Positions 8,801 through 59,148 of a stretch of 64,000 nucleotides of DNA are shown one piece after another (the first letter of the stretch is position 1; each line of letters opens with the position of its first letter). Where the stretch lies: IMG/VR virus record IMGVR_UViG_3300005337_000002. One strand, 5' to 3'. A program made the position numbers and the translations under genes. A model generated the notes under the pieces. The model was not told where the DNA came from and did not search any database. It was given only the letters and a program-made list of their open reading frames with translations. Origin of the DNA: a virus.

Positions 8801-10074
8801 GGGGTCTCCTGCTCGCCTGCCTGCTCTTCCCTACCTCGACTCTTGCGGGGTCGTTCATTCTCAGCTGGGACACTCCGCTGGACTGGCAACCGCGCGTGCA
8901 GTATCGGCTCCAGATCGTCACAACCCAGGCCGGGCGGGCGGTCCAACAGACCCAGACCCTTGCCGCCTTCCCGGCAGGCCAGTGCGCCCAGTGGCCGGAT
9001 GCCCAGCGGACGCCAGAGAGTCTCTGTAGCGAGGTGTGCCTTGAACCAGGGGATTACTCACTCACGCTCCAAGCCGCGACAGATCTGGCGAGTGACTGGT
9101 CAAACGTGCTCGATGTCGATCTGACGAGTACCGGCCCGTGTCATCCCGTGCCGGTCGTGCCGGTGCCCCCCCAAGCCAAGAAACCGATCCCCATCCCGCT
9201 CGTGCCCATCCCACTCCCGACAGCGCCCGCACCGTCAGCGCCGACTCTGACGTCGCTGCTCAATATGGGCTGCGTGAGTTGGAAAGTGACGGGCGTATGC
9301 ATGTGTAACCCCACCACGCCCTGCCTCACATTAGAATATTGGGAACCCCGCTATGTGGTCGAGACGGTGAAATCCCCCGGGGATACGGTCGTTCCGCTCC
9401 TGGGCGATGTGTTGCGCGCCGTCCTCAGTACCACCGGCGCCCCAGCCATCGGCGGCGGCGGCAGCGCCAATGCGAGCGGCAGTGGGCACACGAACCTGTC
9501 GTACAATGAGACGCATATCTACAGCCTGCCCAACCTCTTCGGCGGTCCCTGTACCGCCTGTGCGCCCAGCGGCGGCTTTGGTCTGAACTACGCGAGTGAA
9601 CTGGATGCCCCCGGCTGGCGCATCGATGTATCCGTGCCAACCCCCTATGAGTTGCTCTTGCAGGTGGGGACCTGGGGACGGCTCTACCCACGGTCGGGCA
9701 AGGTCATTCATGGCTCGCCACCGGTCGCCAGCGCACTCACCGCCGTGCGGGCGCTCGACATTATACGCCAACCCATCGGCGTGCCGCCCAACGTCGATGC
9801 GCATGTCGTGACGCAACCCGGTGATGCCGGGACCCCCGCGTGCATGCAGATGGGCTATCCGCGCCAACTCCCCTGCTTCCCCGCGGGCACGCCGAATGCC
9901 CTCTGGGAAACGGGCACGGGGAGTCTGACGGGGCGGTACGCATGGACCATTTGGATCAAGCGGAGTTGCTGTACGAACCCTGCGACGTCGACCTGCGGCA
10001 TTGCGACCCCTGGAATAGGCGGCACCGGCCAGAACGTGTGTCTCTTGCCGCAACTCCCCAGCGTCTTACCTTAA
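8797..10074 (+). CDS. traU: TraU family protein with N-terminal FN3-like domain and Pro linker
   Basis: CVSWKVTGVCMC, EYWEP..VVE, WGRLYPRSG, YAWTIW...CC; signal peptide. Confidence 0.85.
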   Translation: MRGLLLACLLFPTSTLAGSFILSWDTPLDWQPRVQYRLQIVTTQAGRAVQQTQTLAAFPAGQCAQWPDAQRTPESLCSEVCLEPGDYSLTLQAATDLASDWSNVLDVDLTSTGPCHPVPVVPVPPQAKKPIPIPLVPIPLPTAPAPSAPTLTSLLNMGCVSWKVTGVCMCNPTTPCLTLEYWEPRYVVETVKSPGDTVVPLLGDVLRAVLSTTGAPAIGGGGSANASGSGHTNLSYNETHIYSLPNLFGGPCTACAPSGGFGLNYASELDAPGWRIDVSVPTPYELLLQVGTWGRLYPRSGKVIHGSPPVASALTAVRALDIIRQPIGVPPNVDAHVVTQPGDAGTPACMQMGYPRQLPCFPAGTPNALWETGTGSLTGRYAWTIWIKRSCCTNPATSTCGIATPGIGGTGQNVCLLPQLPSVLP

Positions 10075-10090
10075 CACGAAAGGACTGTCT

Positions 10091-10507
10091 ATGCCCTTGC
10101 CCTTTGCGGTTCGCTGGCCCGTCTGTGTCCAGCGCTGGCTCGGCCTGCGCGTCTCGCGTCTGCCGGGCCGTCTTGCCACATTTGGCGTCCCGTGGCCGTC
10201 CCTGCCCCGAAGTGCTGCCAGCTATGAGCGCCTGTTCTACCAGACCTGTGAGGTCCGCATTCCCGCCACGGCGCATGGCTTCCATTGCCCGTGGACCACG
10301 CTCAGCATTGAAGTCTTTCTGTGGGCGCCGGAGGACCAACGTTGGGTCGAGGCCTCGCTCGCCGTCAACATGGGGCTTGCGCCTGACCGTACGCTCTTTG
10401 TGCGGTTCCATACCCCCCAGAGCGGCGTCGTGCGCCTCCTTGCCGTGCGCGGGCAACTGCATGGCCCGCTCCATACGATGCTCCCTGGGATGCCTGGGGA
10501 ACGCTAG
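10091..10507 (+). CDS. hypothetical protein
   Basis: AAGGA RBS; co-oriented in operon. Confidence 0.5.
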   Translation: MPLPFAVRWPVCVQRWLGLRVSRLPGRLATFGVPWPSLPRSAASYERLFYQTCEVRIPATAHGFHCPWTTLSIEVFLWAPEDQRWVEASLAVNMGLAPDRTLFVRFHTPQSGVVRLLAVRGQLHGPLHTMLPGMPGER

Positions 10508-10519
10508 AAAGAATGGTCT

Positions 10520-10996
10520 ATGCAACTCACACTTGATCTGTCTGAGCATGTCATTGAAACCTTGCGAACGTTGGCGATCCAGCGCCATTGCACGACCCCC
10601 GAGATCGCGACGGCGTTGCTTACGCAGGCGGCTTCTGTCGATGCGCCCTCCCTTGATGCCGCGCTGCCTGCCAGGGATGCGGGCATTCTGCTCGATCCAG
10701 CCGCACGGGCTTTACTTCGCGAGCACCATCTGAGCCCAGCCGATCGCGCTTTCCTGAATCACGTGATTGATCTTTGGAATGTCTACGCGCTCGGGAGCCA
10801 ACAGTCTCCCGTCAGTTTCTTCGCGCAGTTTCTCACGGACCAGGCGTGCATGATGATGGCCACGCAGTATCCTGGCGATCTGGACAAGATTGCACAGGCG
10901 GCAACCGTTCTCACGCGCTTGGTCGAGCAATTACTTTGGGCGAAGATCACCCTCACGAATGGCTTTCGTCGCCCACTGCCGGAGGAATTGTCATGA
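10520..10996 (+). CDS. hypothetical protein with RHH-like N-terminus
   Basis: MQLTLDLSEHVIETLRTLA pattern. Confidence 0.5.
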   Translation: MQLTLDLSEHVIETLRTLAIQRHCTTPEIATALLTQAASVDAPSLDAALPARDAGILLDPAARALLREHHLSPADRAFLNHVIDLWNVYALGSQQSPVSFFAQFLTDQACMMMATQYPGDLDKIAQAATVLTRLVEQLLWAKITLTNGFRRPLPEELS

Positions 10997-11364
10997 TATG
11001 CTCCCGCTACGTACTTGCCCTCGGTCTACTGACACTCGCGACGCCTGCCGTCCATGCCCAACCCCTGCCCTGTGCCCTGCAGGCCTTCTTTGAGTCCGTC
11101 TGCCCCGAGGGGTCAACGTCTGTTGCGCCTGTCCCTGCGGCCCCGCCCGCGCTCCTGCCGCCCCTGTTTCCGAAGGAGACGCTCGCGCGGGATATTCCCC
11201 CGCTGATGGTGACACTGCTCGATGCCCCCACCCCCGAGAACGCTCGCGCCTTCCAGGCCTGGCATCGGCGCCGACTGGCCCGTATTCAGGAGGTCAATCG
11301 TCTCCTGCAATCCCTTGAACCTGTCCCCCAGAAAGAGGTGCCTGATGCCCAGCTCCCGCGCTGA
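10993..11364 (+). CDS. secreted protein, TraF N-terminal-like
   Basis: Signal peptide; DAPTPENARAF resembles the TraF NPTxENV motif. Confidence 0.5.
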   Translation: MICSRYVLALGLLTLATPAVHAQPLPCALQAFFESVCPEGSTSVAPVPAAPPALLPPLFPKETLARDIPPLMVTLLDAPTPENARAFQAWHRRRLARIQEVNRLLQSLEPVPQKEVPDAQLPR

Positions 11365-11710
11365 GAAAGCGGCGCCCGCCCGGTGGACTGCCTGGCAGGC
11401 CGCGCGTCGTGCCCAGGGCGTCTTATCCGCCCGAGCCGCCGCCCAGGACTACACCGCGCTCCAGGTCCAACCCCCGCTGCGCGCCACGTTCTTTGTGATG
11501 CTGGATCTGCTGAGTGCCCGGCATAAGTGGCTGCAGCGGCTCGCCAGGCTGCACGCCGATCCGGCCTTCACCGCGTCCCTTGAGGAGGTGGAGGTCGCGT
11601 GGCAGCGGTGGGAGCAGTGGACCCGGCACTTTGCGGCCACGCTGACCCATCTCACCGCTGATCATCCGACGGGCCTGCCGCTGGAGGAGGACCCGCCCGA
11701 TGCCGACTAA
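11345..11710 (+). CDS. hypothetical protein
   Basis: GAGG RBS; overlaps neighbours in operon. Confidence 0.45.
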   Translation: MPSSRAEKAAPARWTAWQAARRAQGVLSARAAAQDYTALQVQPPLRATFFVMLDLLSARHKWLQRLARLHADPAFTASLEEVEVAWQRWEQWTRHFAATLTHLTADHPTGLPLEEDPPDAD

Positions 11711-15839: not shown

Positions 15840-16076
15840 TCAGAGTTGATTTTTTGGTATCTCCTCCGCAGTGACGCGGCAGGCCAGCGCAGGGCTTCCC
15901 CCGCGCCAGGCCACGCGTGCGCGCCGATCCATCCGCGACATCTCAGCGGGATCGGCGCAGACAGGACGTCGGGCATCACCCCCTCTCAGTCTCCGCTCAG
16001 GGTATATTCCAGCACCCGTCAGGTTTGGACTGGCAATCAAAGAGACGCTCATCCAAATGACGAGGTACATAGTCAC
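15840..16076 (-). CDS. small hypothetical protein
   Basis: GGAGG RBS; hydrophobic N-terminus. Confidence 0.35.
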   Translation of the reverse strand: MTMYLVIWMSVSLIASPNLTGAGIYPERRLRGGDARRPVCADPAEMSRMDRRARVAWRGGSPALACRVTAEEIPKNQL

Positions 16077-16190
16077 GCAGCATCACCTCCTCTCAGGGAC
16101 ACACTCAAGGTATTGCCTGTGGGAGCTTGCCGTCATCACCATCACAGACAATAGTTTCGCCAACAATATGACACCCACGTTCATGTCGCA

Positions 16191-16403
16191 TCACCCCCTT
16201 TCAGCGCGCCGCGGCACGTCGGTCCGCCACGTACGCAGCTGGCGCACCCAGCGCTCCTCGTGCTCCAATGCCCCCTCGACCCAATAGGTCAGACGATGCC
16301 GCGCCAGCGTCTGCAGCACCCGCTGCCAGGTCGGTCGCGGATAGTGCGTCGCTGGATGGGCGCAGGAGCGCTGGACACATTTCTTGGCTTGACGGCGTTT
16401 CAT
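16191..16403 (-). CDS. small basic hypothetical protein
   Basis: MKRRQAKK start, coupled to upstream gene. Confidence 0.45.
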   Translation of the reverse strand: MKRRQAKKCVQRSCAHPATHYPRPTWQRVLQTLARHRLTYWVEGALEHEERWVRQLRTWRTDVPRRAERG

Positions 16404-16813
16404 GGGGTGGCTCCTGGCGACGTACACACCCACCGGGGCGCACGATACGTACAGTCAGCACTTCCCGTAACGGGCGGCATGGGCGTCCCACGCTGCACGG
16501 CCGCTTGGTACGTCTGAGCATCGAGGAGGACGGTGATCGCGGCAAACGTGCCAGCGACCGTGGCATCCACATCCAGGCGCCCCACCAGCGTATCGGCCTC
16601 GTGTAGATGGCGCACCACGGCACACGCGCCGGCCCGCTGGGGCGAGACGATCACGGCATAATGCAGGACACCCGTGGCCGTCGTCTCCATCAGGCAGGTT
16701 TGAGGCAGCAGTAGGACACGCTGGGGCAGAACCGGCCAAAGCCAGGTCGCCGCAAACACGGGGGCAAGGCCCAAGAGCGCCAGCACCGTGAGGGCACGAA
16801 AGAGGGGGATCAT
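16400..16813 (-). CDS. membrane-anchored hypothetical protein
   Basis: N-terminal TM; coupled. Confidence 0.5.
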   Translation of the reverse strand: MIPLFRALTVLALLGLAPVFAATWLWPVLPQRVLLLPQTCLMETTATGVLHYAVIVSPQRAGACAVVRHLHEADTLVGRLDVDATVAGTFAAITVLLDAQTYQAAVQRGTPMPPVTGSADCTYRAPRWVCTSPGATP

Positions 16814-17037
16814 GGCCCCTCCTGCACGATAAACACAGCAAACGCAGTGCGGAAGACCGCGAGGCGCGCCTCACGCGCACCGGCGGTTTGCAGACCCCCA
16901 CGCCGTTTGGCCTCGACCAGACACACGGCGGAGCACGCGGTATGCCGGAATCCGCCATAGGGCGCAGGCGCGGGGGCACGGACACCACAGCCCTCGCATT
17001 TGTAGGTCGCGACAGGCTGGTCAGGGGGTGGGGGCAT
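16810..17037 (-). CDS. small Cys-rich protein
   Basis: CEGC..CSAVC; coupled. Confidence 0.4.
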   Translation of the reverse strand: MPPPPDQPVATYKCEGCGVRAPAPAPYGGFRHTACSAVCLVEAKRRGGLQTAGAREARLAVFRTAFAVFIVQEGP

Positions 17038-17305
17038 CGGGAACTTCCTCCTGACGGAGGACCAGCGTGGCCAGTGCCTCCACCGTCGCCCAGGGGAGCG
17101 CCACTTCGCCCTCGCGCATGGCAGGCACGCCGCTGCCTGCCTGGACCAGCAGCGTAATGGGCTTCCCCAACTCGCGTGCATACGCCAGTTGTCGCTGGCA
17201 GCGACGATCCTTGTGCCAGTTGGGCGTGACGAGCGCGACAAACACGTCATTGGTGCGCACATGGCGTTTCCAGTCAAGGCCATGCGTATGCATGTCAATG
17301 GGCAT
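17021..17305 (-). CDS. truncated TIR-like domain protein lacking the catalytic Glu
   Basis: VRTNDVFVALVTPNWHKDRRCQRQLAYARELGKPITLLV matches the TIR_2 core, with Q in place of E. Confidence 0.6.
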   Translation of the reverse strand: MPIDMHTHGLDWKRHVRTNDVFVALVTPNWHKDRRCQRQLAYARELGKPITLLVQAGSGVPAMREGEVALPWATVEALATLVLRQEEVPDAPTP

Positions 17306-17321
17306 AGGCATCCCTCCTGCC

Positions 17322-17606
17322 TTATTTCGCACGAAAGGTGACCGACGCACTCTCGCCGCTACAGCCAGACGGGAGGTCAAAGACACTGCTGGCCTTGCCC
17401 GTCTGGCGGAGCGTGAGCCGCACTTTCTCTGCGGGAGGCTCACCGCGCAGGACCGTTGTGCCATCGGACCAGACGGTACAGTTGCGGCAGGCGACCCCGT
17501 CATTTTTCTCGAGTTTGGGCGGTCCCTCGACTTTGTCAAGGACATAGCCCTCAGGCGGGGTAAACGTGAAGCCGGCGGCGAGCAGGCAGGTGAGCAGAAT
17601 CAGCAT
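17322..17606 (-). CDS. small secreted protein
   Basis: Signal-like N-terminus; AAGGAG RBS. Confidence 0.5.
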   Translation of the reverse strand: MLILLTCLLAAGFTFTPPEGYVLDKVEGPPKLEKNDGVACRNCTVWSDGTTVLRGEPPAEKVRLTLRQTGKASSVFDLPSGCSGESASVTFRAK

Positions 17607-17838
17607 ACGGCGCTCCTTGTGGGTTGAACAGACAGCGATCTCTCACAGCGACAATGGGCGGGGCACTGATGACACTGCCCACAGCGGACGCCCCACCAGG
17701 CCCGCCAGGGGAGGAGGAAGTGCGGCGTGGGCGGGACCTGCACAGCATCACAGCCACAGGCATCGGTCACAGCCCGCGTCCCGGCATGGGCACAGCAATC
17801 GCAGTAGCGCGTGCGTTCCGGCAGACGGTGGTGCGGCA

Positions 17839-18357
17839 TCAGTGTAGCTCCTCCAGCGTAAACACATCGCCCTCTGCTTCCCACGTGGTACTCGCTGGGG
17901 CCAGCGTCCGCGTCACGAGGTACTCATACAGCGGCGGCATAATATCACGGCGAGTATAGCGTTGCTGGATCACGACCGCCGGGCCATAGCCGTCCTCGTA
18001 CCACACCTGCACCGGCTCGCCCTGGGCATAGCGCCACCGCACGAGGCCCCAGCGGGACAGCCAGCGGCGCAGACGTCCCGGCGTCTCACGGCGCCGCGGG
18101 GGTGGACGCGGTGCGGCCATCAGGGGGGCGTCTGGCGGAGGGGACGCGCCTTCATGCGCCTGCGCCCGGAGGGTGCGGAGCAGGTCGGCCGCAGCGGTGG
18201 CCAGCAGCGCGCGCCAGCCTGGCGGGAGGGCCCGCCCCGCCGGTGCCCGGAGCAGATCCTGGCAATCGCGGGCGAGTTTGTAGGCGCCCTGCCCCACGCG
18301 GTCGGTCGGCTCGAGGTGACAGGCCCAGAGGGGTCCGCGGGCGGGCGGAGGCCTCAC
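17839..18357 (-). CDS. hypothetical protein (start uncertain)
   Basis: GTG overlaps MTase stop; globular C-terminal part. Confidence 0.4.
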   Translation of the reverse strand: MRPPPARGPLWACHLEPTDRVGQGAYKLARDCQDLLRAPAGRALPPGWRALLATAAADLLRTLRAQAHEGASPPPDAPLMAAPRPPPRRRETPGRLRRWLSRWGLVRWRYAQGEPVQVWYEDGYGPAVVIQQRYTRRDIMPPLYEYLVTRTLAPASTTWEAEGDVFTLEELH

Positions 18358-20465
18358 GCGTCCTCCTTGCTCGGGGGCGCGCCTAGGGGCAGCGCGGAGA
18401 GCTGGCCCGCGGTCGTCCCGTAGCCGGTGTCGGCCAGCGCGGTCAGGCTGTGCCCAAACGGGCCCCCCGCCGTCGTACGATAATGGAGACCGCCGCGCTG
18501 GCCCGTCCCGACGATATCGGCATACGGCGGGGAACTCACCGCACAATCGAGCTGGCCTGGGGGCATCGCGGCGAGTTGGCCCGGGGACGATCCATACCCG
18601 CGCGGGTGGTTGATTTGGGAATTTTTCCCAGTGGTGCCGCCAGACCGGCGCGGGCGAGAGGTGCGCTGTCTGCGGTCGGCAATCGACGTCCTCTCGTCTT
18701 GCCCATGGAAACTCTCGGCATAGGGCGGTGAGCTGATCGTGCACGCACACCCCTGGAGGAGCGGCAACTGTTGCCAGGCGTCCTCGGGCGGCAGGGGCGC
18801 GGGCTTGCGCATGCAATAGACCGTCTCCCATGCAATCGCGAGGTCCGGACGCTTCCGTTCATGCAGGCGGCGGAAGAAGGAGATGCGCTTGGTCTGGAGT
18901 GTCTCGGTCGAGGGCGTCGGGGTATAGCGCCCGGTGGTGTGGAGCGGCGCGCAGAGACTGTCGCCCTCAGCGTCGGTCCAGTGCATATCCGCGCCGTCCT
19001 GGGAAAAGAGCGTCTCCTGCGTGCCGTACTCCTCGGTCAGCACGGCGTGGTGCTCGTGGAGGGTCTCGAACCCGACACTTTCAGCGGCGAGGCGCCAGTC
19101 GCCAGGAAAATCGACGATGGTCCCGTCACGACAATAGCCTTTGACCACCCACAGCGCGTGGCCGCCTGGCCGCACGACGGCAAAGGTTTGCCGCAGAATC
19201 TGCACCGCTGCAGACCAAAAGGTGGTCGGCGCTGCGGTGCCGAGCTGCCCCGGACTGGCCCCATATGTCTGTGCCGCTATGCCCCCGACGCCATGCGTGC
19301 CAAACGCGGCTTGCTGCGTGCGGTCGCGGCGGCCCCCGTCCACCTTCGACCAGTCAATCGCATCCCGCGTGTCATTGAGACTGGCCGCGTAGGGAGGTGA
19401 GGACACGAGGCAGTCGGCCACCGGCATGGTTCCTAACTGCCCCGGCGAGTCGGGATAGTGATAATCCCCTTTGTTGCGGTCAGCACTTTGGCCAGTGGCG
19501 CGTGTCCCAGCACCAGCGCCGAGCTTTGTTGGCTTGGTATCCGTATTAGAAAAGGGGGGAGATGAGATCAGGCAGTCGGCCACTTCGCCCGTCGCCATGT
19601 TCCCGAGTTGCGCCGGATCACTGCCGTAGTACGGGTCCACGATGCCCTTGTCGTGCATGATGCCACGGTGACTATCCTTGTCGCGCTTGGCGTGGTCGGC
19701 GTAGGTATGTTCTTTGCCAAGGCCGTGGGCATAGGGCGGACTACTCACGCAGGCCGCAACCTGCCCGGCCAGCACCTTCTCCAACTCCCGACTATCGCCT
19801 CGCAGCAGCACGGCGCCCGTGTGGCCCTGCGCCGCCCAGGTCTCCAGATTGCCCTGGTAGTGATGCGGCCCACTCGACGGAATCGTGCCGCTGTTGTGGG
19901 CATAGCTCGTCGTCGTCACGGCAAAGAGCGTCGCCACCGGGCCATGGGGCGGTGGACGCACGCCATCCTGCCGATCTGGCAACGGCAGCGGCAGAAACGG
20001 CACGGTCCGCTGCCGCACGCGCTGGCCCGGTTTGGGCCGCGTCCGAAAGGTGCGGCGCCGGGCCACGGGCAGGCCGGTGCGCTGGGACGCCTGGGTCAGA
20101 CAGCGCGGACACCAGTAGTGACCGTCTGCATAGCGCAGGCGTGTCCAGCGGCCATAGCAGCGCACCCAGTCCGCCTTGGTGATGCCGGTACAGTCACAGC
20201 CGGTGCCGAGATCATTGAAGGGTTGCTCCAACTCCACGCCGATCCAGCGACAGCCGAGGGCCATGGCATCCCAGGCGCCGAGGCCGACCCCCCCGAAGGG
20301 GTCAACAATGGTCGATCCCGGGGCAAGCCAGCCTTCGGCCGCCGCATGCGCATAGATGTGCTGAATGAGCGCCCGTGAGAATTTCGCCGGGTGCCCGAAG
20401 GCTTCTGGGACAATGTGCTGCCAACTGCTGCTGTACAACGATCGCCACACCGTTACGTCAACCAT
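18354..20465 (-). CDS. DNA methyltransferase (N4C-type SPPY) with five repeated motif-IV cassettes
   Basis: HPAKF, DPFGGVG, GVELE; SSPP[YF]...Y[GP]xxx[GA]QL repeated five times. Confidence 0.85.
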   Translation of the reverse strand: MVDVTVWRSLYSSSWQHIVPEAFGHPAKFSRALIQHIYAHAAAEGWLAPGSTIVDPFGGVGLGAWDAMALGCRWIGVELEQPFNDLGTGCDCTGITKADWVRCYGRWTRLRYADGHYWCPRCLTQASQRTGLPVARRRTFRTRPKPGQRVRQRTVPFLPLPLPDRQDGVRPPPHGPVATLFAVTTTSYAHNSGTIPSSGPHHYQGNLETWAAQGHTGAVLLRGDSRELEKVLAGQVAACVSSPPYAHGLGKEHTYADHAKRDKDSHRGIMHDKGIVDPYYGSDPAQLGNMATGEVADCLISSPPFSNTDTKPTKLGAGAGTRATGQSADRNKGDYHYPDSPGQLGTMPVADCLVSSPPYAASLNDTRDAIDWSKVDGGRRDRTQQAAFGTHGVGGIAAQTYGASPGQLGTAAPTTFWSAAVQILRQTFAVVRPGGHALWVVKGYCRDGTIVDFPGDWRLAAESVGFETLHEHHAVLTEEYGTQETLFSQDGADMHWTDAEGDSLCAPLHTTGRYTPTPSTETLQTKRISFFRRLHERKRPDLAIAWETVYCMRKPAPLPPEDAWQQLPLLQGCACTISSPPYAESFHGQDERTSIADRRQRTSRPRRSGGTTGKNSQINHPRGYGSSPGQLAAMPPGQLDCAVSSPPYADIVGTGQRGGLHYRTTAGGPFGHSLTALADTGYGTTAGQLSALPLGAPPSKEDA

Positions 20466-21103
20466 GAGGACGCCTCCATGCGTGGCAGACGACGTGCACC
20501 ACGAGGAGCCGGACGTTTGCCGCGACAGTTATGTCCGACCAGAAAGCGGCGCGGGCGCCCTTTTTTATCGTACTGTGCCAAAGGAGTCGCGCAACCACAT
20601 GCACACAGGATGAGAGGATTCTCTGCTCCCACGCGACGCGTGTTGGGATTGTTGCCATGCTGTTGTGCATGGAGGGCTCTATCGACCACTTCTAAATTGT
20701 CAGGGCTATTATTCTGTTTGTTCTGATCTTTATGATGCACACATTCATTGCGACGCAGCGGCCGTCCGAGCATCGCTGTAACGACAACAATATGTTCCAA
20801 GACCCAGCCATTCGATGTGGCATGAGGATGTGATGGGCATTTAATCCGTACATAGCCATATGCGGTGATATGGCGCGTGCTGCTTTGCGCTCGTTGACAT
20901 GTTTTTGAGCAGAAAAAGCGGCGGGATGCCCGTCGTCGCACGCGTGTACCGCACGTGCGACAGGGAAATTCTTCCACATACGATTCTTGAACAAAACGCC
21001 CCGTCGCATCTCTTGTACGCCCTGTCCATACATCGACCGCAGGTCCTCTGCCCACCCCATGATTTTCCTTCTTGGGTTCTTGCATATGAGCGAAATTCTC
21101 CAT
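20453..21103 (-). CDS. HNH endonuclease
   Basis: GYV..HP....GWVLEH...LGR.L...E.VHHKD.NK.NN.PDNL; CACGC..GHN tail. Confidence 0.85.
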   Translation of the reverse strand: MENFAHMQEPKKENHGVGRGPAVDVWTGRTRDATGRFVQESYVEEFPCRTCGTRVRRRASRRFFCSKTCQRAQSSTRHITAYGYVRIKCPSHPHATSNGWVLEHIVVVTAMLGRPLRRNECVHHKDQNKQNNSPDNLEVVDRALHAQQHGNNPNTRRVGAENPLILCACGCATPLAQYDKKGRPRRFLVGHNCRGKRPAPRGARRLPRMEASSWLT

Positions 21104-21138
21104 CAGTCACATTGTTTCTTCTCCAGCGATCCCCCCCA

Positions 21139-21987
21139 TCACCGCCTCTCCTGTCCTCCTGAGCCAGTACTCGTCCCCGTTCCCGGCACAAATGCCCCCA
21201 CCCCGACCTGCACCCGTGCCACCTGTCCGCGCTCCGTCGTGGCATCGAGCAGCGTCCCCACGACATAGCCGGTGCGCGGCGGGGTCGCTTGCGCATGACA
21301 GCGGCCGACCAGGTCCTGGGGCGCGGGCACGATATACCACCCGTGTGCCTGGGTGAGGGCGCTATCCATCTCGCACAGCGCCTCGCCCTCCGCCGCGACG
21401 AGGGCATGGCCGACCGTCCCGGCCCCCGCGAGGACAACGAAGAGCGGGACCGTGGGATCGCGCGAGACGCGCACGCCCGTGCCTGTGTGCTGGGCGAGCC
21501 GGTACTTGACGGTCCCCGTCGCCGCCTCATTGGGCACCGCCATCACGCGTGTCGACGGGCGTATCAGTGAGGACGAGTCTCCTTGTGGCAGGAGACTCGC
21601 CGCCTGGAGGATGGGCTGTGGCATGCTCGTCACGGTCCCCGTGCCTGCTCCTGTGTCTGCCGCGGTGGCGACATCCCGGGGCGTCCTGGCGGGTGCCTCC
21701 GCGCTCCACGTCGTGGGGAGCGGCGGGGACAGCGCCACGGGCACGGGCCGCACCGTGTACGGCCACCAGCGGTGCATCGGCGCCACTAGCAGGAGATACA
21801 CCCCCACACAGGGCGCGAGCACCGCCAGCACCGTCCAGCCCCACACCACGAGTGCGTCAGTATCCCGCGGGCGGGGAGGACGCCCCGTCCGCCGCCAGGT
21901 CCGCCCTGAGGCCGAGCCATACGCGGACGTCCGCCACCGGGCAATCTCCTCAGGCGTATAGTCCCACAGGGCTTTGTCAGGCGGCAT
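21139..21987 (-). CDS. membrane-anchored protein carrying a domain shared with the 57724-59148 virion-like protein
   Basis: One TM; C-terminal domain alignable by eye with the N-terminal domain of 57724-59148. Confidence 0.6.
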   Translation of the reverse strand: MPPDKALWDYTPEEIARWRTSAYGSASGRTWRRTGRPPRPRDTDALVVWGWTVLAVLAPCVGVYLLLVAPMHRWWPYTVRPVPVALSPPLPTTWSAEAPARTPRDVATAADTGAGTGTVTSMPQPILQAASLLPQGDSSSLIRPSTRVMAVPNEAATGTVKYRLAQHTGTGVRVSRDPTVPLFVVLAGAGTVGHALVAAEGEALCEMDSALTQAHGWYIVPAPQDLVGRCHAQATPPRTGYVVGTLLDATTERGQVARVQVGVGAFVPGTGTSTGSGGQERR

Positions 21988-22005
21988 GCCGGTCCCTCTC
22001 CCGCA

Positions 22006-22305
22006 TCAGTCCCTCGCTTGCTCATCCGCAAGGAAATCAGGCACCACATAGCGCCCCACAAAATACGTCAGGGTGCCAAGGTGCAGGCTCACGCCGAGCA
22101 CAAACCACGGCAGCGGCGGATGGAGGACGCTTAGCACGAGATCGACCATCGTCGCGCTCAGCATCGCCACGCAGGCCACGGGCGCGGCCCAGGACGCGGG
22201 GGCGGGGCGCACCCAGAGCCGTCCCTGCTGGGTATGGCGGTACGTGCGCAGGATGCGGGTCCGTTGCGCCGCATGACGACTGACGCGCATGGGATTAGGG
22301 CGCAT
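22006..22305 (-). CDS. small membrane protein
   Basis: Two hydrophobic segments; GGAGG RBS. Confidence 0.45.
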   Translation of the reverse strand: MRPNPMRVSRHAAQRTRILRTYRHTQQGRLWVRPAPASWAAPVACVAMLSATMVDLVLSVLHPPLPWFVLGVSLHLGTLTYFVGRYVVPDFLADEQARD

Positions 22306-22786
22306 GACGGTCCTCCTGTGCGGCGTCAGACGGTATCAGTGTGAGATGCACATAGCGCGCGACACCATACCCGTGAATCTGCACCGTCAGGCCCGTGCCT
22401 GGCGCCACGACCAGGGGTGACGTGAGAGGCTGCACCCGCAACAGTTGGTCCCCGCAGGGATAGCCACTGCGCCACGTGTCGTCGACTTTGATATCGACCG
22501 ACGCGTTCGCCGTGTCCGCAACGCAGCGCAGGCGTGTATAGGTTTTGGCCGCAGGGCTCAGGTTGGTGCAGATCCACTCGTCGGTTTCGGTGGTGAGCGC
22601 CTCGGCCTCTGCGGAGAGGCTCCCGAAGATAATCGTACAGGGAAATGCCTGTGATGACCGGTGCGCCGGGAACCAGAAGACTGACCGGTCCGGCTCTTCG
22701 ACCAGCGGGCATGCCCACCAGAGGCCTACGAGGAGCCCCGCGCTCAAAAGAGTCCCGCCGATGAGCAGTACCTTTAGCATGTCCAT
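22295..22786 (-). CDS. membrane-anchored protein resembling the C-terminal domain of 57724-59148
   Basis: TM then PCTIIFGSLS..A..L....C.N......LRCVAD. Confidence 0.55.
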   Translation of the reverse strand: MDMLKVLLIGGTLLSAGLLVGLWWACPLVEEPDRSVFWFPAHRSSQAFPCTIIFGSLSAEAEALTTETDEWICTNLSPAAKTYTRLRCVADTANASVDIKVDDTWRSGYPCGDQLLRVQPLTSPLVVAPGTGLTVQIHGYGVARYVHLTLIPSDAAQEDRHAP

Positions 22787-23100
22787 TCTCCATGCTCCTC
22801 CGGCCAGGGAGAGCCACAACAGGGGCGATAGCCCTGCGGCCAGCGATCCTGCCGGCGCGTATACCAGGGCCACCAGCGTCCTGCATCCGTCAGCACGTCG
22901 GCATACCAGGCCCGCACGGTCGCAGCTTCCTGGGCCGAGTACGTGCCATCCTCCAGCAGCGGTACGAGGGCGCTATACGACGTCCGAAGCATACGTCGAA
23001 CATGGGCTTGCAAGCGCAGCCAGTGCAGATAGGCGATGCTCCAGCCCAGAATGAGCAGCGCACCGAAGACCCCGCAACTCACGAGCAGTATATGTCCCAT
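22774..23100 (-). CDS. membrane protein
   Basis: N-terminal TM; GAGG RBS. Confidence 0.45.
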   Translation of the reverse strand: MGHILLVSCGVFGALLILGWSIAYLHWLRLQAHVRRMLRTSYSALVPLLEDGTYSAQEAATVRAWYADVLTDAGRWWPWYTRRQDRWPQGYRPCCGSPWPEEHGEWTC

Positions 23101-23185
23101 GCGTCCTCTATCCTTTCTGTAGAGATCCGGTTACAATTTCACCCCAGCAGGCCCCATGAGACTCTCTCACGCAAAGGATGTGTCT

Positions 23186-23545
23186 ATGTGTCCGCCCGCC
23201 TGTTGGATCGTCTCGTTCAGTTTCGGCGTCCTCCTCGGCGTCGGCCTGGCCCATCTGGCCCTGTGGATGGTCGCCCCACCCCAGCGCGTGTTCTTGCGCG
23301 ACGTCCCCGCCCCGCAGTGCCATGTCACCGCCTATGCGGCCAATGGCGCCGTGCTGGGCACACTCCTGGTCGCGCCCTCGCCGTATCACACGAATGCGGT
23401 CCACCTGCGCTGGGTACCCGAGGCCCCGCTGGCAGGCTACGTGCGCGTGACCGACCTCACCGCCGCGCTGGAGATCGCCTGGCCGCTGGGGGCTCACAGC
23501 CGGGTACCAGGACTGATGCCACAGGCGAGCGACAGCCGCACTTGA
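23186..23545 (+). CDS. membrane-anchored hypothetical protein (lone + gene)
   Basis: AAGGA RBS; N-terminal TM. Confidence 0.45.
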   Translation: MCPPACWIVSFSFGVLLGVGLAHLALWMVAPPQRVFLRDVPAPQCHVTAYAANGAVLGTLLVAPSPYHTNAVHLRWVPEAPLAGYVRVTDLTAALEIAWPLGAHSRVPGLMPQASDSRT

Positions 23546-23943
23546 CGCACCCCTGCGGACTGCGCAATGCCCAGTATTAACCGCGTGTCCCGTGGGAGCG
23601 CGAGCAGCGGCACCACCTGCCAGGCGTGTCCTGGGAGCAGCGGGAGCACCTGTGGCGGCTGCAGGCCAATCCGTACCGCACTCGGGCCAATCGTGCCATC
23701 CGTCGAGAGCCGCACCGCGGTCAGGTGACAGGGACGGGCGAGCGCCATCGCGACGTGCGCGAGGTCCTCGGACGTCAAGGGATCGGGCGCCGTCGTATCC
23801 CCAAACACGAAGGTCATCATCTCGGGCTCCTCGGGCTCAGCGGCTGGAAACAGGCGCGGCCACAGGAGCATCACCTGCATGCCCAGACTCACGAGGAGCA
23901 ACCCGCACGTCAGCATCGTGAGCCAGGGGAGCCGATGGATCAT
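23494..23943 (-). CDS. membrane-anchored hypothetical protein
   Basis: GGAGG RBS; TM then beta-rich domain. Confidence 0.5.
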   Translation of the reverse strand: MIHRLPWLTMLTCGLLLVSLGMQVMLLWPRLFPAAEPEEPEMMTFVFGDTTAPDPLTSEDLAHVAMALARPCHLTAVRLSTDGTIGPSAVRIGLQPPQVLPLLPGHAWQVVPLLALPRDTRLILGIAQSAGVRQVRLSLACGISPGTRL

Positions 23944-23956
23944 GCGCGTCTCCTCC

Positions 23957-24430
23957 CTAGCCATGTCTCGCCATCTGGTGGCGCTGCCATTCTCTGAGCA
24001 ACTCTGCCCCATAACGACTGTCGATGACAAACGCGTAGAACGCCTGCAACTCAGCGAGGTCCTCGTTATTCACGAGCGCGGCCTTGCGTTTGACGACCCG
24101 CCCCTCCTCGACGGTGAGAGTACCAGTATCACCGATCGATTCGCCTTGATACTGCACACAGCCTGTGAGTGAGACGTCGACAGGGGCCAAGACATGATCG
24201 AGCAGATATTGGAGCCACTCGACATAGTGATAAAACTTCTCGCCGCCGTCCCATTCGAGGCCCCGCCGCCCCTGTGTGAGTTGCCACTGGTTGTACCCGG
24301 CGGGTACCGGCATGGGCAGGCCAGGCGGCATCACCTGCGCATCATAGAGATCTATGAGCAACAGCAATGTTTCCGCAGGAGGCGGCGTGGTAAATGTAAA
24401 ACTGCCCTCAAAGTCGGTTGTATAGCCCAT
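23957..24430 (-). CDS. conserved phage hypothetical protein
   Basis: MGYTTDFEG...WDGGEKFYHYVEWLQYL..GE..D.G family motif. Confidence 0.7.
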   Translation of the reverse strand: MGYTTDFEGSFTFTTPPPAETLLLLIDLYDAQVMPPGLPMPVPAGYNQWQLTQGRRGLEWDGGEKFYHYVEWLQYLLDHVLAPVDVSLTGCVQYQGESIGDTGTLTVEEGRVVKRKAALVNNEDLAELQAFYAFVIDSRYGAELLREWQRHQMARHG

Positions 24431-55843: not shown

Positions 55844-57727
55844 TCACCGCATGCTCACGCGGTGGCGGCGCACCGTGGCACTCTGGCGGTAGTCCGTCAG
55901 AATCTCGGCGGCACTCCAGACGCGATTATCCAGACGAAAGTCATCGACGCTGCCGGGGTCATAGTACGTGCCGGATTCATTCACCCAGCGGCCGACGTCA
56001 AAGACCGTCAGATCGACGGTCGGGGCGGTCGAGGACGGCGCCGACGCCACAAGCGCGCCGTTCGCATAGATCGCCCGCACGCTACTGGTTGCCCCGCTGG
56101 AGACGAGCGCGAACCGCACCCATCGCCCGAGATAGGGTGTACAGTCCACGCTCACGCGCCCGACGGTATGCCAGTCGCCGTAGTCCCAGTAGCAGACATT
56201 GTCGCTGTACGGGAGATGCGCGCCAAACCGGTCCTGCACCGCGGCGCTATGCGCGCCAAAGGCCCCGGTGACGCCCCCGGCGGTCACTTTGCGCCACAGG
56301 AGCACGGTGACGGGCTGCCCCGCTGTCCACACCATCGTGGCAGTGGTCACGTACTGCGCCACGCCGTTCATCGTCACGGCGCCGGTCCCGACGCGCCCCG
56401 GTCCCCAGAGCGGACCCCCCGCGAGCGTGCCGGTATAGCCATTGCCCGTCGCATCGGCCACGGTCGTCCCCGTGCCCTCATCGAATTTCCACCGCAGCGC
56501 TTGTGGGCCGGTCGTCACGACGCCGCTGCCATACTCTTCCGCCCCGAGGTCATAGGCCGCGCCCTGGGGCCGTGCGATCCCGCGCCGATCGGTCGGCACG
56601 GCGGCGAGCGTGACGCCCGCATCAATGGCCGGGCTGCCCGCCTGGAGGCGAAAGTCGCCGGCAGCCGCATTGACAAAGAGGGGATCGCCCGTGAGCAGAT
56701 TATGATCCCGGATCGTGCCGGTGGCCCCGTCATCTTGAATGGTGTCCGCGTTCCCCGTCAGGATATTGTTCTGAATTTTGGTATTCGTATTGCCGACGTT
56801 GATTTCAATCGCCGCGCTCTGCGGGTTCTGGGTAATGGTATTGTTATAGACGCGATTATTATCCACCCCAAAGCCGCCGGTGCCCGGACTGATACTCACG
56901 ACGGCTCCATTGCCAATGCAGAGATTATTCGAAAAGATATTGTTCGCGAGGAGATTATTCCCGCCATTCATAATGATGACATTGAGCCCTTGCCCCCGCG
57001 TGCCGTCATTAAAGCAATTCTCGTGAAACAGGTTATTGGTGACGACGGCATTTTCCACCCCACCCCCGCTGAGATAGAGATGGATCGCATAGCCATAGTT
57101 GTCATAAAACTCGTTGCCATCCATCGTCATATTCGTCCCGTTACAGTAGCAGCCATACTGGCCCGGAATGCCGTTTGGATCGCCGACATAATTGAGATCG
57201 AGCCGCGCCCCGTGGATCTTATTGCCCACGAGGCGGACATGATCGGTATAGCGGGCGATGCCCACCGTCGCGAAATCGCCCCCCGTAAAGTTGCTGTTGC
57301 TGACGGTAATATGGTGGCTATTGATCGAGATTTCCAGATGGGGCGAGGTCAAGTTATCCAGCGTGAGATATTGCGGGATGCTGGCATCAAAGTTGTCCTG
57401 GATATTGATCTGGTTGGGGATCACCACCGTTTCGCCGGGATACCCCGCGATGGTGATGCGCGTACTCTCATTCGTGCCGCTGGGGAGGCGAAAGCCCACG
57501 GGACTAAAGAGTTCATTATAGGTCCCACCCCGAATGAGCAGCGTATCGCCCGGTGTCAGGCACGCGACCCCAGCGGCAATCGTGCGCCGGGGCGTGGTCA
57601 GTTGGGTGGCCGCCGCACAGCTATTGCCGGCGGCGACGGCCCCATCAACATAATAGATCGTGGCGTGGGCAGGCCCCCACCAGAGACCGCAGAGGAGGAC
57701 GACCAGGAGCATGCGAGGGTGTCTCAT
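55844..57727 (-). CDS. secreted beta-helix + LamG domain protein
   Basis: Signal peptide (PAHA|TIYYVD), PGDTLLIRGGTY, GDFRLQAGSPAIDAG, W.FDEG.G...D..GNG..G, DDFR. Confidence 0.85.
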   Translation of the reverse strand: MRHPRMLLVVLLCGLWWGPAHATIYYVDGAVAAGNSCAAATQLTTPRRTIAAGVACLTPGDTLLIRGGTYNELFSPVGFRLPSGTNESTRITIAGYPGETVVIPNQINIQDNFDASIPQYLTLDNLTSPHLEISINSHHITVSNSNFTGGDFATVGIARYTDHVRLVGNKIHGARLDLNYVGDPNGIPGQYGCYCNGTNMTMDGNEFYDNYGYAIHLYLSGGGVENAVVTNNLFHENCFNDGTRGQGLNVIIMNGGNNLLANNIFSNNLCIGNGAVVSISPGTGGFGVDNNRVYNNTITQNPQSAAIEINVGNTNTKIQNNILTGNADTIQDDGATGTIRDHNLLTGDPLFVNAAAGDFRLQAGSPAIDAGVTLAAVPTDRRGIARPQGAAYDLGAEEYGSGVVTTGPQALRWKFDEGTGTTVADATGNGYTGTLAGGPLWGPGRVGTGAVTMNGVAQYVTTATMVWTAGQPVTVLLWRKVTAGGVTGAFGAHSAAVQDRFGAHLPYSDNVCYWDYGDWHTVGRVSVDCTPYLGRWVRFALVSSGATSSVRAIYANGALVASAPSSTAPTVDLTVFDVGRWVNESGTYYDPGSVDDFRLDNRVWSAAEILTDYRQSATVRRHRVSMR

Positions 57728-59148
57728 TGGAGGACTCCCTTGATCTTCACCTGGACAAACTTGGCCGTGCCCCCGGCTGCCGTAATGTTGACGGCCAGAT
57801 CGCACGGCGTACTACTACACGTGGCCCCCGTCCCGCTAAAAGGGTGCACCAGTGGACTGCCGTTGACCGTACACGCCGCCCAGATACCCGTGCCGCACGT
57901 ACAGGCCCCCGTGAGAATCGAGGTACCCGTGATGTCCCCGGTCAGGATGGGGCGCACGGTGGGCGTGCCCGCGTCGGCCATACAGGCGACCGTCGTGATT
58001 TTCCAGTCTTTTTCAAAGTCGTTCGGACAGGCGCGGGGCGAATCCTCATCATCGGCCAGCGGCGGGGCATCGACACTCACCGAGCCGACGCTAATGACGC
58101 AGGGCTTGATCTTGTACTTGTCGGGGATCCCGATACTCCAGGCCTTCCAGCGCGTCGCGGTCGCATCATAGATGATCGCCAGCGTCTCGCCCGGGAAGAG
58201 GGTCAGGTCCCCCCCGAAGAGGAAGCGATTCACGGCCGAGGAGCTGGCACTCTGGTCTTTGAGGGTGAGGGCATTGGTCGTGCCCACGTTCTGGAGCGCA
58301 ATGATATCACCGCCTGTCCCCGCGGTCAGGCCGGTGAGCAGTCGATCCGCTGCGCCTCCATTGATGCGACAGACGCCAGTGGTACACAAGGCGTAATCAT
58401 TGGCATCGCCTGCCAGGGTCGCGGTCGTCGCGGTGCCGGTCACTGCGAGTTGCGGGGGCAGGTCCGCTTTGACCGGGGCGCGAAACGTCGGGGCTGCAGC
58501 ACTGCCCGAGGCCGGTCCCGCATAATGGGTATTGGCCGTTTGCGTGGCTTTGACCCAGGCAATGGTGCCCGCGGTCGTGATCGGCGAGCCGGTGACGGTA
58601 TACTCGGTCGGCGGCGTGATCGTCACACTCGTGACGGTGCCGGTGCCTGCGCCACTGCCGGGGACATAGGCAATAATCTTGGTATCAATCAGGGCCAGAC
58701 TGCCTGCCGTCGTCGCATTGTCGTCCATTTGCCCGATGACAATGCCGTTACTGGGGGCAGCGGCTTGCGCGTGGCAGTCCCCCGCCACCGTGACCGACGC
58801 GACGACATACTGGCCGCGCACGTTACTCGCGGTGGCGTCCATGCGGCAACTGGTCACGCCGCTCAGATTGAGCATGGCATAGCCGGTCGTGGTCCCGTTG
58901 CGCGTGACCACATAGAGCGGGATATTCGTATCGCCCGTGCCGGCGATCACCGCCCCCGTCGAGGTGATCTTCGCGAGGGACCAGAGGGTCGTTCCGGTGC
59001 TGGGGTCATTGAGCACGGCCTTGACGGTATTGGTGCCGCGCGACGCTTCCTGCGCATCGACGCCCGGGAGCAGCGTGGCGAGGGCGAGCATGAGCAGCAG
59101 GAGGCGCAGGGTCGGGGAGCGGAGCAGATGGGCGAGTCGTGCCAACAT
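57724..59148 (-). CDS. tail-fibre/adhesin-like multidomain protein with signal peptide
   Basis: GTVTSV.....EYTVTGSPITTAGT and AGPASG.AA.PTFRA.V.ADLP fibre repeats; signal peptide (GVDA|QE). Confidence 0.7.
   Translation of the reverse strand: MLARLAHLLRSPTLRLLLLMLALATLLPGVDAQEASRGTNTVKAVLNDPSTGTTLWSLAKITSTGAVIAGTGDTNIPLYVVTRNGTTTGYAMLNLSGVTSCRMDATASNVRGQYVVASVTVAGDCHAQAAAPSNGIVIGQMDDNATTAGSLALIDTKIIAYVPGSGAGTGTVTSVTITPPTEYTVTGSPITTAGTIAWVKATQTANTHYAGPASGSAAAPTFRAPVKADLPPQLAVTGTATTATLAGDANDYALCTTGVCRINGGAADRLLTGLTAGTGGDIIALQNVGTTNALTLKDQSASSSAVNRFLFGGDLTLFPGETLAIIYDATATRWKAWSIGIPDKYKIKPCVISVGSVSVDAPPLADDEDSPRACPNDFEKDWKITTVACMADAGTPTVRPILTGDITGTSILTGACTCGTGIWAACTVNGSPLVHPFSGTGATCSSTPCDLAVNITAAGGTAKFVQVKIKGVLQ

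Follow-up and report, generated by a model that had tools for sequence, protein, structure and literature searches.

The window analysed here is a stretch of 64,000 nucleotides that forms part of the 141.6-kb genome of an uncultured tailed phage (IMG/VR record IMGVR_UViG_3300005337_000002). It contains a group of small minus-strand genes, among them open reading frames (ORFs) A, B, C and E, and the gene for protein D, which lies 36 kb from them in the tail-fibre region, beside beta-helix and LamG-type genes. The original prediction took the products of A, B and C for membrane-tethered copies of virion-protein domains. A carries a homologue of the N-terminal jellyroll of D, E, which the prediction had not named, carries half of the same module, and B probably carries a homologue of the C-terminal jellyroll; C is not such a copy.

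Protein D (57724–59148, minus strand; 474 residues) consists of a Sec signal peptide (residues 1–32, with cleavage after V-D-A), an N-terminal jellyroll (38–162), a fibre repeat of the GTGTVTS type (165–215), a middle beta domain (227–338) and a cysteine-rich C-terminal jellyroll (345–474). The fibre repeat is the source of hundreds of partial matches to tail-fibre-like proteins. The N- and C-terminal jellyroll modules are found neither in Pfam nor in PHROGs. Canonical Sec leaders ending in ..A|Q are present in D and in all 17 homologues examined, 13 of them full-length proteins from a protein search and 4 from IMG/VR phage contigs. Because D and every one of these homologues carry such a leader, the description of D as a virion protein has become doubtful. 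D is predicted to leave the cytoplasm, the site of virion assembly, and its incorporation into virions there appears unlikely.

The predicted model of D (mean predicted local distance difference test score, pLDDT, 78) gives each of its domains structural neighbours. Residues 38–160 resemble the trimeric decoration or cement proteins of capsids and the N-terminal base of the phi29 head-fibre protein gp8.5 (Z 10.2–12.3, root-mean-square deviation 2.6–3.3 Å over 107–124 residues); the matching PDB entries (8qsy, 9ocb, 6qvk/6qyy, 5wk1 and 9kzj) have 5–13% sequence identity with D, and the similarity obtained is one of monomer folds. By its homology with D, the module of A is expected to have this fold too. 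The middle domain resembles the N-terminal domains of tailspikes (Z 7–9.5), and the C-terminal jellyroll resembles distal fibre domains and lectin domains of the discoidin and carbohydrate-binding module (CBM) kinds (Z 7–8.5). According to these models, D is a fibre-like protein of modular build that has a 'base' at one end and a 'distal' part at the other; A and E copy the base, and B copies the distal end. The capsid-decoration-like fold of residues 28–165 (58654–59067) is an odd feature for a Sec-exported protein from a tail-fibre region. In four IMG/VR contigs of 54–123 kb (L003–L006), the genes of the D family, with matches at about 10000–11500, stand among very large ORFs of the same strand (1100–2000 codons), which are taken as the tail module. 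In one of these contigs, L006, the N-module is joined to a C-terminal part unlike that of D.

ORF A (21139–21987, minus strand; 282 residues; G+C content at third codon positions, GC3, 0.81) is divided by hydropathy and charge into a basic cytoplasmic tail (residues 1–46), a transmembrane (TM) segment (47–71), a variable proline-containing linker (72 to about 145) and a jellyroll module (about 146–270). The sequence comparisons place the homology of this module, encoded at 21160–21570, with the N-terminal jellyroll of D beyond doubt, as the original prediction had claimed for the C-terminal half of A. Residues 134–276 of A align with residues 28–171 of D at 36% identity over 145 residues (BLASTP E 5e-24). 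The Smith–Waterman score of 252, against a mean of 41 for shuffled sequences (z 31), is reached by none of 1000 shuffles, and a hidden Markov model (HMM) of the N-module, built from 14 proteins of the D family, matches both A and the orthologue of A (E 3.7e-31; HMM positions 12–140 in the case of A). The alignment retains the invariant positions of the D family, including the cysteine pair, with C205 and C230 of A on C101 and C125 of D. The architecture is rearranged: in A the module is C-terminal, behind the 46-residue tail, the TM segment and a linker of about 75 residues, whereas the D-type homologues (17 of 17) are leader-first.

Two metagenomic contigs, L001 (9.7 kb) and L002 (1.9 kb), are syntenic with the block of small genes, and both carry an orthologue of A. 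In the L001 orthologue (P0122; L001:4745–5794), the tail, the TM segment and the module are about 85–90% identical to those of A, and the linker varies, with an insertion of about 60 residues that contains four cysteines. The L002 orthologue (1346–1855) has a Cys4, zinc-ribbon-like insertion in its cytoplasmic tail, and the tail motif DKALWDY.PEEIA is present in all three proteins. When positions 16000–24100 were compared with the D gene by blastn, the only nucleotide similarity was a 26-nt match (85% identity, E 0.01) between 21626–21651 and 58628–58653. It falls on the GTGTVTS fibre-repeat motif, which stands upstream of the module in A and downstream of it in D; the displaced motif in A may be a relic of the original context of the duplicated segment.

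ORF B (22295–22786, minus strand; 163 residues) has a signal-anchor helix (residues 3–25), an acidic linker and a jellyroll of about 105 residues (46–152), which corresponds to the C-terminal module of D. The predicted start of the gene at 22786 holds, as the substitutions upstream of it follow the frame of the neighbouring gene. Pairwise similarity between B and D is weak (BLASTP E 0.010 over 50 residues; z 5–6, with 1 of 1000 shuffles reaching the score). The profile of three B orthologues aligns residues 46–152 of B with residues 346–471 of the D family in hhalign (E 3.4e-4, 107 columns). A search of 1.84 billion representative proteins with the B-family HMM gave six matches, one of which is P0128, a protein of 565 residues with a signal peptide; residues 45–146 of B match its last 110 residues (E 5e-4 library-wide; BLASTP of B against P0128, 2e-7). 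The C-terminus of P0128 in turn aligns with the C-module of D in hhalign at 99.2% probability (E 5.9e-20), so that P0128 links B to D transitively. In the joint alignment, C50, C73, C88 and C111 of B fall on the conserved C350, C374, C389 and C418 of D, and the C444/C449 loop of D is missing from both B and P0128. Among the other matches of the B profile, the PKD-like repeat proteins P0124–P0127 were judged unrelated, as they have only a short stretch of the form 'PC.I.F.N.S' in common with it, and this stretch overlaps the TM segment in part.

An AlphaFold model of B, made from its own alignment of three sequences with D excluded, consists of a TM helix at residues 3–25, a disordered linker and seven strands, which pair one for one with the aligned strands of the C-module of D. 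Residues 48–160 of this model (Z 6.1–6.3) and residues 340–474 of D (Z 7.3–8.2) match the same PDB entries in a structure search independent of Foldseek, with at least 10 entries common to the two top-50 lists. The common entries include distal jellyrolls of phage fibres and discoidin/CBM-type lectin domains, namely the tail fibre of Agrobacterium phage 7-7-1 (9rkv_M), the baseplate of phage KP1 (9f4b), CASPR2 (5y4m) and neuropilin b1 (8pfe), with middling Z values of the kind expected for a common fold, from which no ligand site can be deduced. Also common to both are 7eel_H, 1czs, 1stm, 7fcn, 2df7, 7a02 and 8hcj. PHM is matched as 5wm0_A by B and as 8dsn_K by the C-module of D. With Z of 6–8, the predicted folds of B and of the C-module do not differ, which does not in itself prove homology. 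As the profile alignment, the P0128 bridge, the four aligned cysteines and the independent model converge, the predicted relationship of the B ectodomain to the C-terminus of D is upheld at moderate strength.

A six-frame scan of the window with the N-module HMM revealed the additional copy, ORF E (16400–16813, minus strand; 137 residues). It has a hydrophobic leader (residues 1–25), the C-terminal half of the D N-module (36–105) and a cysteine-containing tail. Its relation to the N-module is supported by the HMM (E 1.5e-7, HMM positions 73–135), by BLASTP against D (6e-6) and by hhalign (89%, E 2.4e-6). Residues 36–105 align with residues 97–164 of D, so that C40 and C64 fall on the cysteine pair of D, and two further cysteines lie in the tail. 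Three orthologues (P0136–P0138) are 81–88% identical to E, the four cysteines are invariant in all four sequences, and GC3 exceeds GC2 in the ORF. A relative of 31.6 kb carries orthologues of both A and E.

The predicted topology brings these modules into one compartment. A TM anchor ahead of each ectodomain, as foreseen in the original prediction, is indicated by the hydrophobic segments at residues 47–71 of A, 3–25 of B and 8–28 of C, and that of B is helical in its AlphaFold model. Because the 46-residue tail ahead of the TM segment of A is basic (9 lysines or arginines), A is predicted to have its N-terminus inside and its C-terminus outside. B, C and X129p, a small gene product described below, begin with a hydrophobic helix followed by an acidic or proline-rich stretch without a good signal-peptidase site. 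The leader of E ends in sites of the V-F-A or A-L-A type, so that cleavage may release E into the periplasm as a soluble protein instead of leaving it tethered. The conserved cysteine pairs of A and E and the four aligned cysteines of B fit an oxidising compartment. Since D has a Sec leader and the copies are predicted to face outward from their anchors, D and its copies should meet in the periplasm.

Comparison with the relatives indicates that the copies are maintained. Substitutions fall preferentially at third codon positions in B, C, X129p and x99, another small gene of the block, and the ratio of nonsynonymous to synonymous substitution rates (dN/dS) is 0.24–0.33 for B and 0.41 for the module of A; the row for x191, a frame artefact, was left out of the dN/dS table. 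Judged from their sequences, A, B and E are real genes under purifying selection. B is only 61–63% identical between relatives whose A modules are 90% identical, a fast divergence that would fit a specificity-determining protein. The synonymous rate (dS) of the A module (21160–21570 against L001:5379–5782) is 0.14 and that of the adjacent genes 0.5–1.2, which suggests mosaicism or a recent exchange of the segment between relatives.

The original prediction had proposed to look for the duplication in related elements, and the outcome is divided: the genes are conserved in L001 and L002, but in the four other IMG/VR phage records that encode a D homologue, of which two are 100% complete, the N-module occurs just once per record. 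Since these D-bearing contigs make do with one N-module, the additional copies seem to be accessory features of this lineage that D can function without. In a maximum-likelihood tree of the N-module, from which the half-length E sequences and P0140 were excluded, A and its orthologues form a clade with short terminal branches, on a branch of 1.89 within an unresolved polytomy of the D family that includes the D of the window. The tree fits a duplication within the lineage, followed by rapid divergence and then conservation, though a polytomy is no proof of it.

The function that we tentatively favour, with rather less than even confidence, is that the copies compete in the periplasm for the partners of the D modules, with exclusion or regulation as the result. 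A, B and E would present diverged paralogues of D modules at the periplasmic side of the inner membrane, would bind the same kinds of partners as those modules and would compete with them. The competition would amount to exclusion or self-protection, analogous to receptor interference, or else it would restrain the exported fibre set up to a late stage of infection. Competition is favoured because the copies share the compartment of D and reproduce the two ends of a single protein in separate genes, and because they are dispensable elsewhere, sit among small membrane proteins and accessory genes and, in the case of B, evolve fast. A fully specified form, a phage receptor interference in which inner-membrane-anchored copies of both ends of an exported, disulfide-bonded D occupy periplasmic partners, and either exclude related phages with D-like proteins or keep the exported fibre set inactive until lysis, is unlikely as a whole. 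Several points weigh against competition, and the main difficulty is one of topology. From the periplasm, a copy is unable to cover a receptor exposed on the outside of the outer membrane, a simple receptor-decoy model misfits a diderm host, and, because the copies are predicted to face the periplasm, any target of theirs must be reachable from there, as it is for the T5 protein Llp. At 36% identity the copies may bind partners other than those of D, and the long branch leading to A is equally compatible with a new function. A, B, C and E have no match at E ≤ 0.1 in Pfam, PHROGs or PADLOC, and thus none to a known exclusion or defence family, a negative that has no bearing on whether they work in a similar way. 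Confidence in B itself is limited, as the hhalign probability between the B family and the D family is just 38% and the model of B is middling (mean pLDDT 66.3, with the core at about 70–85).

The same observations have been weighed under three other explanations. It is possible, though on balance improbable, that the jellyrolls, as binding modules of versatile use, underwent a single copying event, were recruited to unrelated membrane proteins and have no functional link to D now; envelope- or glycan-binding accessory proteins and transmembrane sensors are conceivable examples. Such independent reuse would account for the branch of 1.89 that carries A and for its identity to D of only 36%, and also for the strongly conserved cytoplasmic tail of A, which together with the Cys4 insertion of the L002 orthologue suggests a cytoplasmic partner. 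Other proteins combine the N-module with different architectures (L006, P0133 and P0134), and the fold matches are to generic jellyrolls. However, three genes of one accessory region copy the modules of one protein, from both of its ends, into the compartment of that protein, for which chance recruitment is the less economical account. Another possibility, a doubtful one, develops the membrane scaffold of the original prediction: the A module would co-oligomerise with the N-module of D and so retain D, once exported, at the inner membrane up to lysis, with the assistance of B and E. The resemblance of the N-module to trimeric decoration proteins and the gp8.5 base (Z 10–12.3), the common compartment of A and D, and a linker in A long enough to span part of the periplasm are all in keeping with such a dock, but D evidently needs none in the four other D-bearing contigs (two of them complete genomes) that have no second N-module, so that an obligate scaffold is disfavoured. 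Moreover, E is half a module only, it is hard to see what a scaffold would gain from tethering the distal C-module separately, and mixed trimers are uncertain at 36% identity. The copies might, finally, be silent cassettes that serve as raw material for the shuffling of fibre domains, or decaying duplicates without function. The 26-nt similarity at the GTGTVTS motif upstream of the A module and the low dS of that module, far below its neighbours and a hint of recent exchange between relatives, could be read in this way, but nucleotide similarity to D is otherwise nil, the reading frames are intact, the anchors and cysteines are conserved, dN/dS is 0.24–0.41 for the A domain and B, and E is conserved in four sequences at 81–88% identity. 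The selection data largely refute this explanation, which is highly improbable, and the domain-shuffling reservoir of the original prediction is disfavoured with it.

Superinfection-exclusion proteins, such as Imm and Sp of T4, gp15 of HK97, SieA of P22, the lactococcal Sie2009, Ltp of TP-J34 and Llp of T5, are the nearest phage counterparts of the proteins considered here. They are likewise small, their genes lie apart from the structural modules, they are held in the envelope with a periplasmic orientation, and they are often lineage-specific and fast-evolving. To our knowledge, none of them is a paralogue of the fibre or adhesin modules of its own phage. The Llp protein of T5 is a periplasm-side protein able to block the receptor (PMC9586334). 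A, B, C and E differ from the exclusion proteins in that they have no sequence match to any catalogued family. With respect to folds, the decoration and cement proteins and gp8.5 of phi29 reside on the capsid, whereas the related module stands behind a Sec leader in D and behind a TM anchor in A.

Two systems outside this group offer partial parallels. Endogenous retroviruses supply membrane-bound proteins derived from the envelope protein, which give receptor interference. The likeness is one of concept only, in that the infected cell makes a viral binding module in membrane-tethered form, and this copy competes for the partner of the module. Retroviral interference takes place in eukaryotes, at a single membrane and with the receptor on the same surface, whereas here the predicted orientation of the copies is towards the periplasm of what is presumably a diderm host, and D is predicted to be exported. 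We know of no description of this strategy, familiar from retroviral envelope genes, in phages, and a full-text search of a limited literature collection yielded no earlier phage case in which membrane-tethered proteins are paralogous to fibre modules of the same phage. In conjugative exclusion of the F-like and SXT types, the inner-membrane proteins TraS and Eex and the lipoprotein TraT are the known agents. An F-like type IV secretion system is present in the genome of this phage, with a TraG/VirB4-like ATPase, TraU, TraG_N and a coupling protein confirmed, and the focal genes encode small inner-membrane proteins; however, no similarity to the conjugative exclusion proteins was found, and the copied modules stem from a tail-module protein that is also present in phages of 54–67 kb.

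In kind, A, B and E are small accessory phage membrane proteins, and what distinguishes them is their origin from an exported fibre-like protein and their probable interplay with it. If the copies compete with D for its partners, they would illustrate how a phage can put its own adhesin modules to use in exclusion or self-regulation, and would offer a way into the question of why fibre-like proteins of several soil phages are exported through Sec. Even if they act independently of D, they exemplify rapid intragenomic duplication of modules, with subsequent relocation in the cell, in a single phage lineage. Two uncharacterised jellyroll modules have been delimited in either case, and their relatives and alignments can seed family models.

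The remaining genes of the block encode further small membrane proteins. ORF C (23494–23943, minus strand; 149 residues), with a signal anchor and a beta-rich ectodomain, is a real gene, as 56 of 102 substitutions lie at codon position 3 and dN/dS is 0.34. Its proposed weak similarity to D was rejected (BLASTP E 5.5, hhalign E 0.36), a combined HMM of B and D does not match it, and its match to B falls mostly in the hydrophobic segment. Shuffled controls separate the three similarities first proposed, those of A (clearly significant) and B (z 5–6) being retained and that of C (z −0.5) discarded. ORF X129p (23156–23545, plus strand; about 119–129 residues; GC3 0.81), with a TM anchor and a small domain, is the most conserved gene of the block, with 92% amino-acid identity to L001, a dN/dS of 0.10 and 38 of 50 substitutions against L001 at third codon positions. 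It sits between C and x108 on the opposite strand and converges on C, with which it overlaps by about 50 nt. The minus-strand ORF 23108–23497, which lies over it, is an off-frame artefact according to codon-position analysis against a syntenic relative. X129p was not accepted as a copy, since it has only a motif of 30 residues in common with A (VPAPQ..CH..G.V.GTLL; z 3.4) and its hhalign comparisons with D (E 0.024 over 22 columns) and with E (E 0.21) are not significant. It has a weak PHROG match to phrog_29477, of unknown function (E 0.007). For C and X129p, the models from the ESM Atlas were of low confidence and no usable neighbours came from it. Between A and B lies x99 (22006–22305, minus strand), a small two-TM hairpin protein with a dN/dS of 0.22–0.37, and x108 (22774–23100, minus strand) encodes a small protein, absent from L001, that has a single TM segment at its N-terminus and a C-terminus predicted to be cytoplasmic.

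The minus-strand focal genes are flanked by a PHAX-like gene and by genes for an HNH endonuclease and a DNA methyltransferase. Their designation as an early operon was drawn from the neighbouring genes only, and a scan for promoters and terminators gave no signal above background that would define an operon. A blastn search with positions 21000–24100 found no similar record among phage and plasmid records, and single-sequence scans of IMG/VR with A and with D did not find relatives. Two further small ORFs lie on the minus strand nearby. Between the methyltransferase region and ORF E, an ORF of 94 codons (17322–17606) without a family match encodes an N-terminal hydrophobic leader and three cysteines. 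Upstream of C, an ORF of 157 codons (23957–24430), whose product has no hydrophobic segment, matches phrog_38666, a family of unknown function, at E 2e-15.

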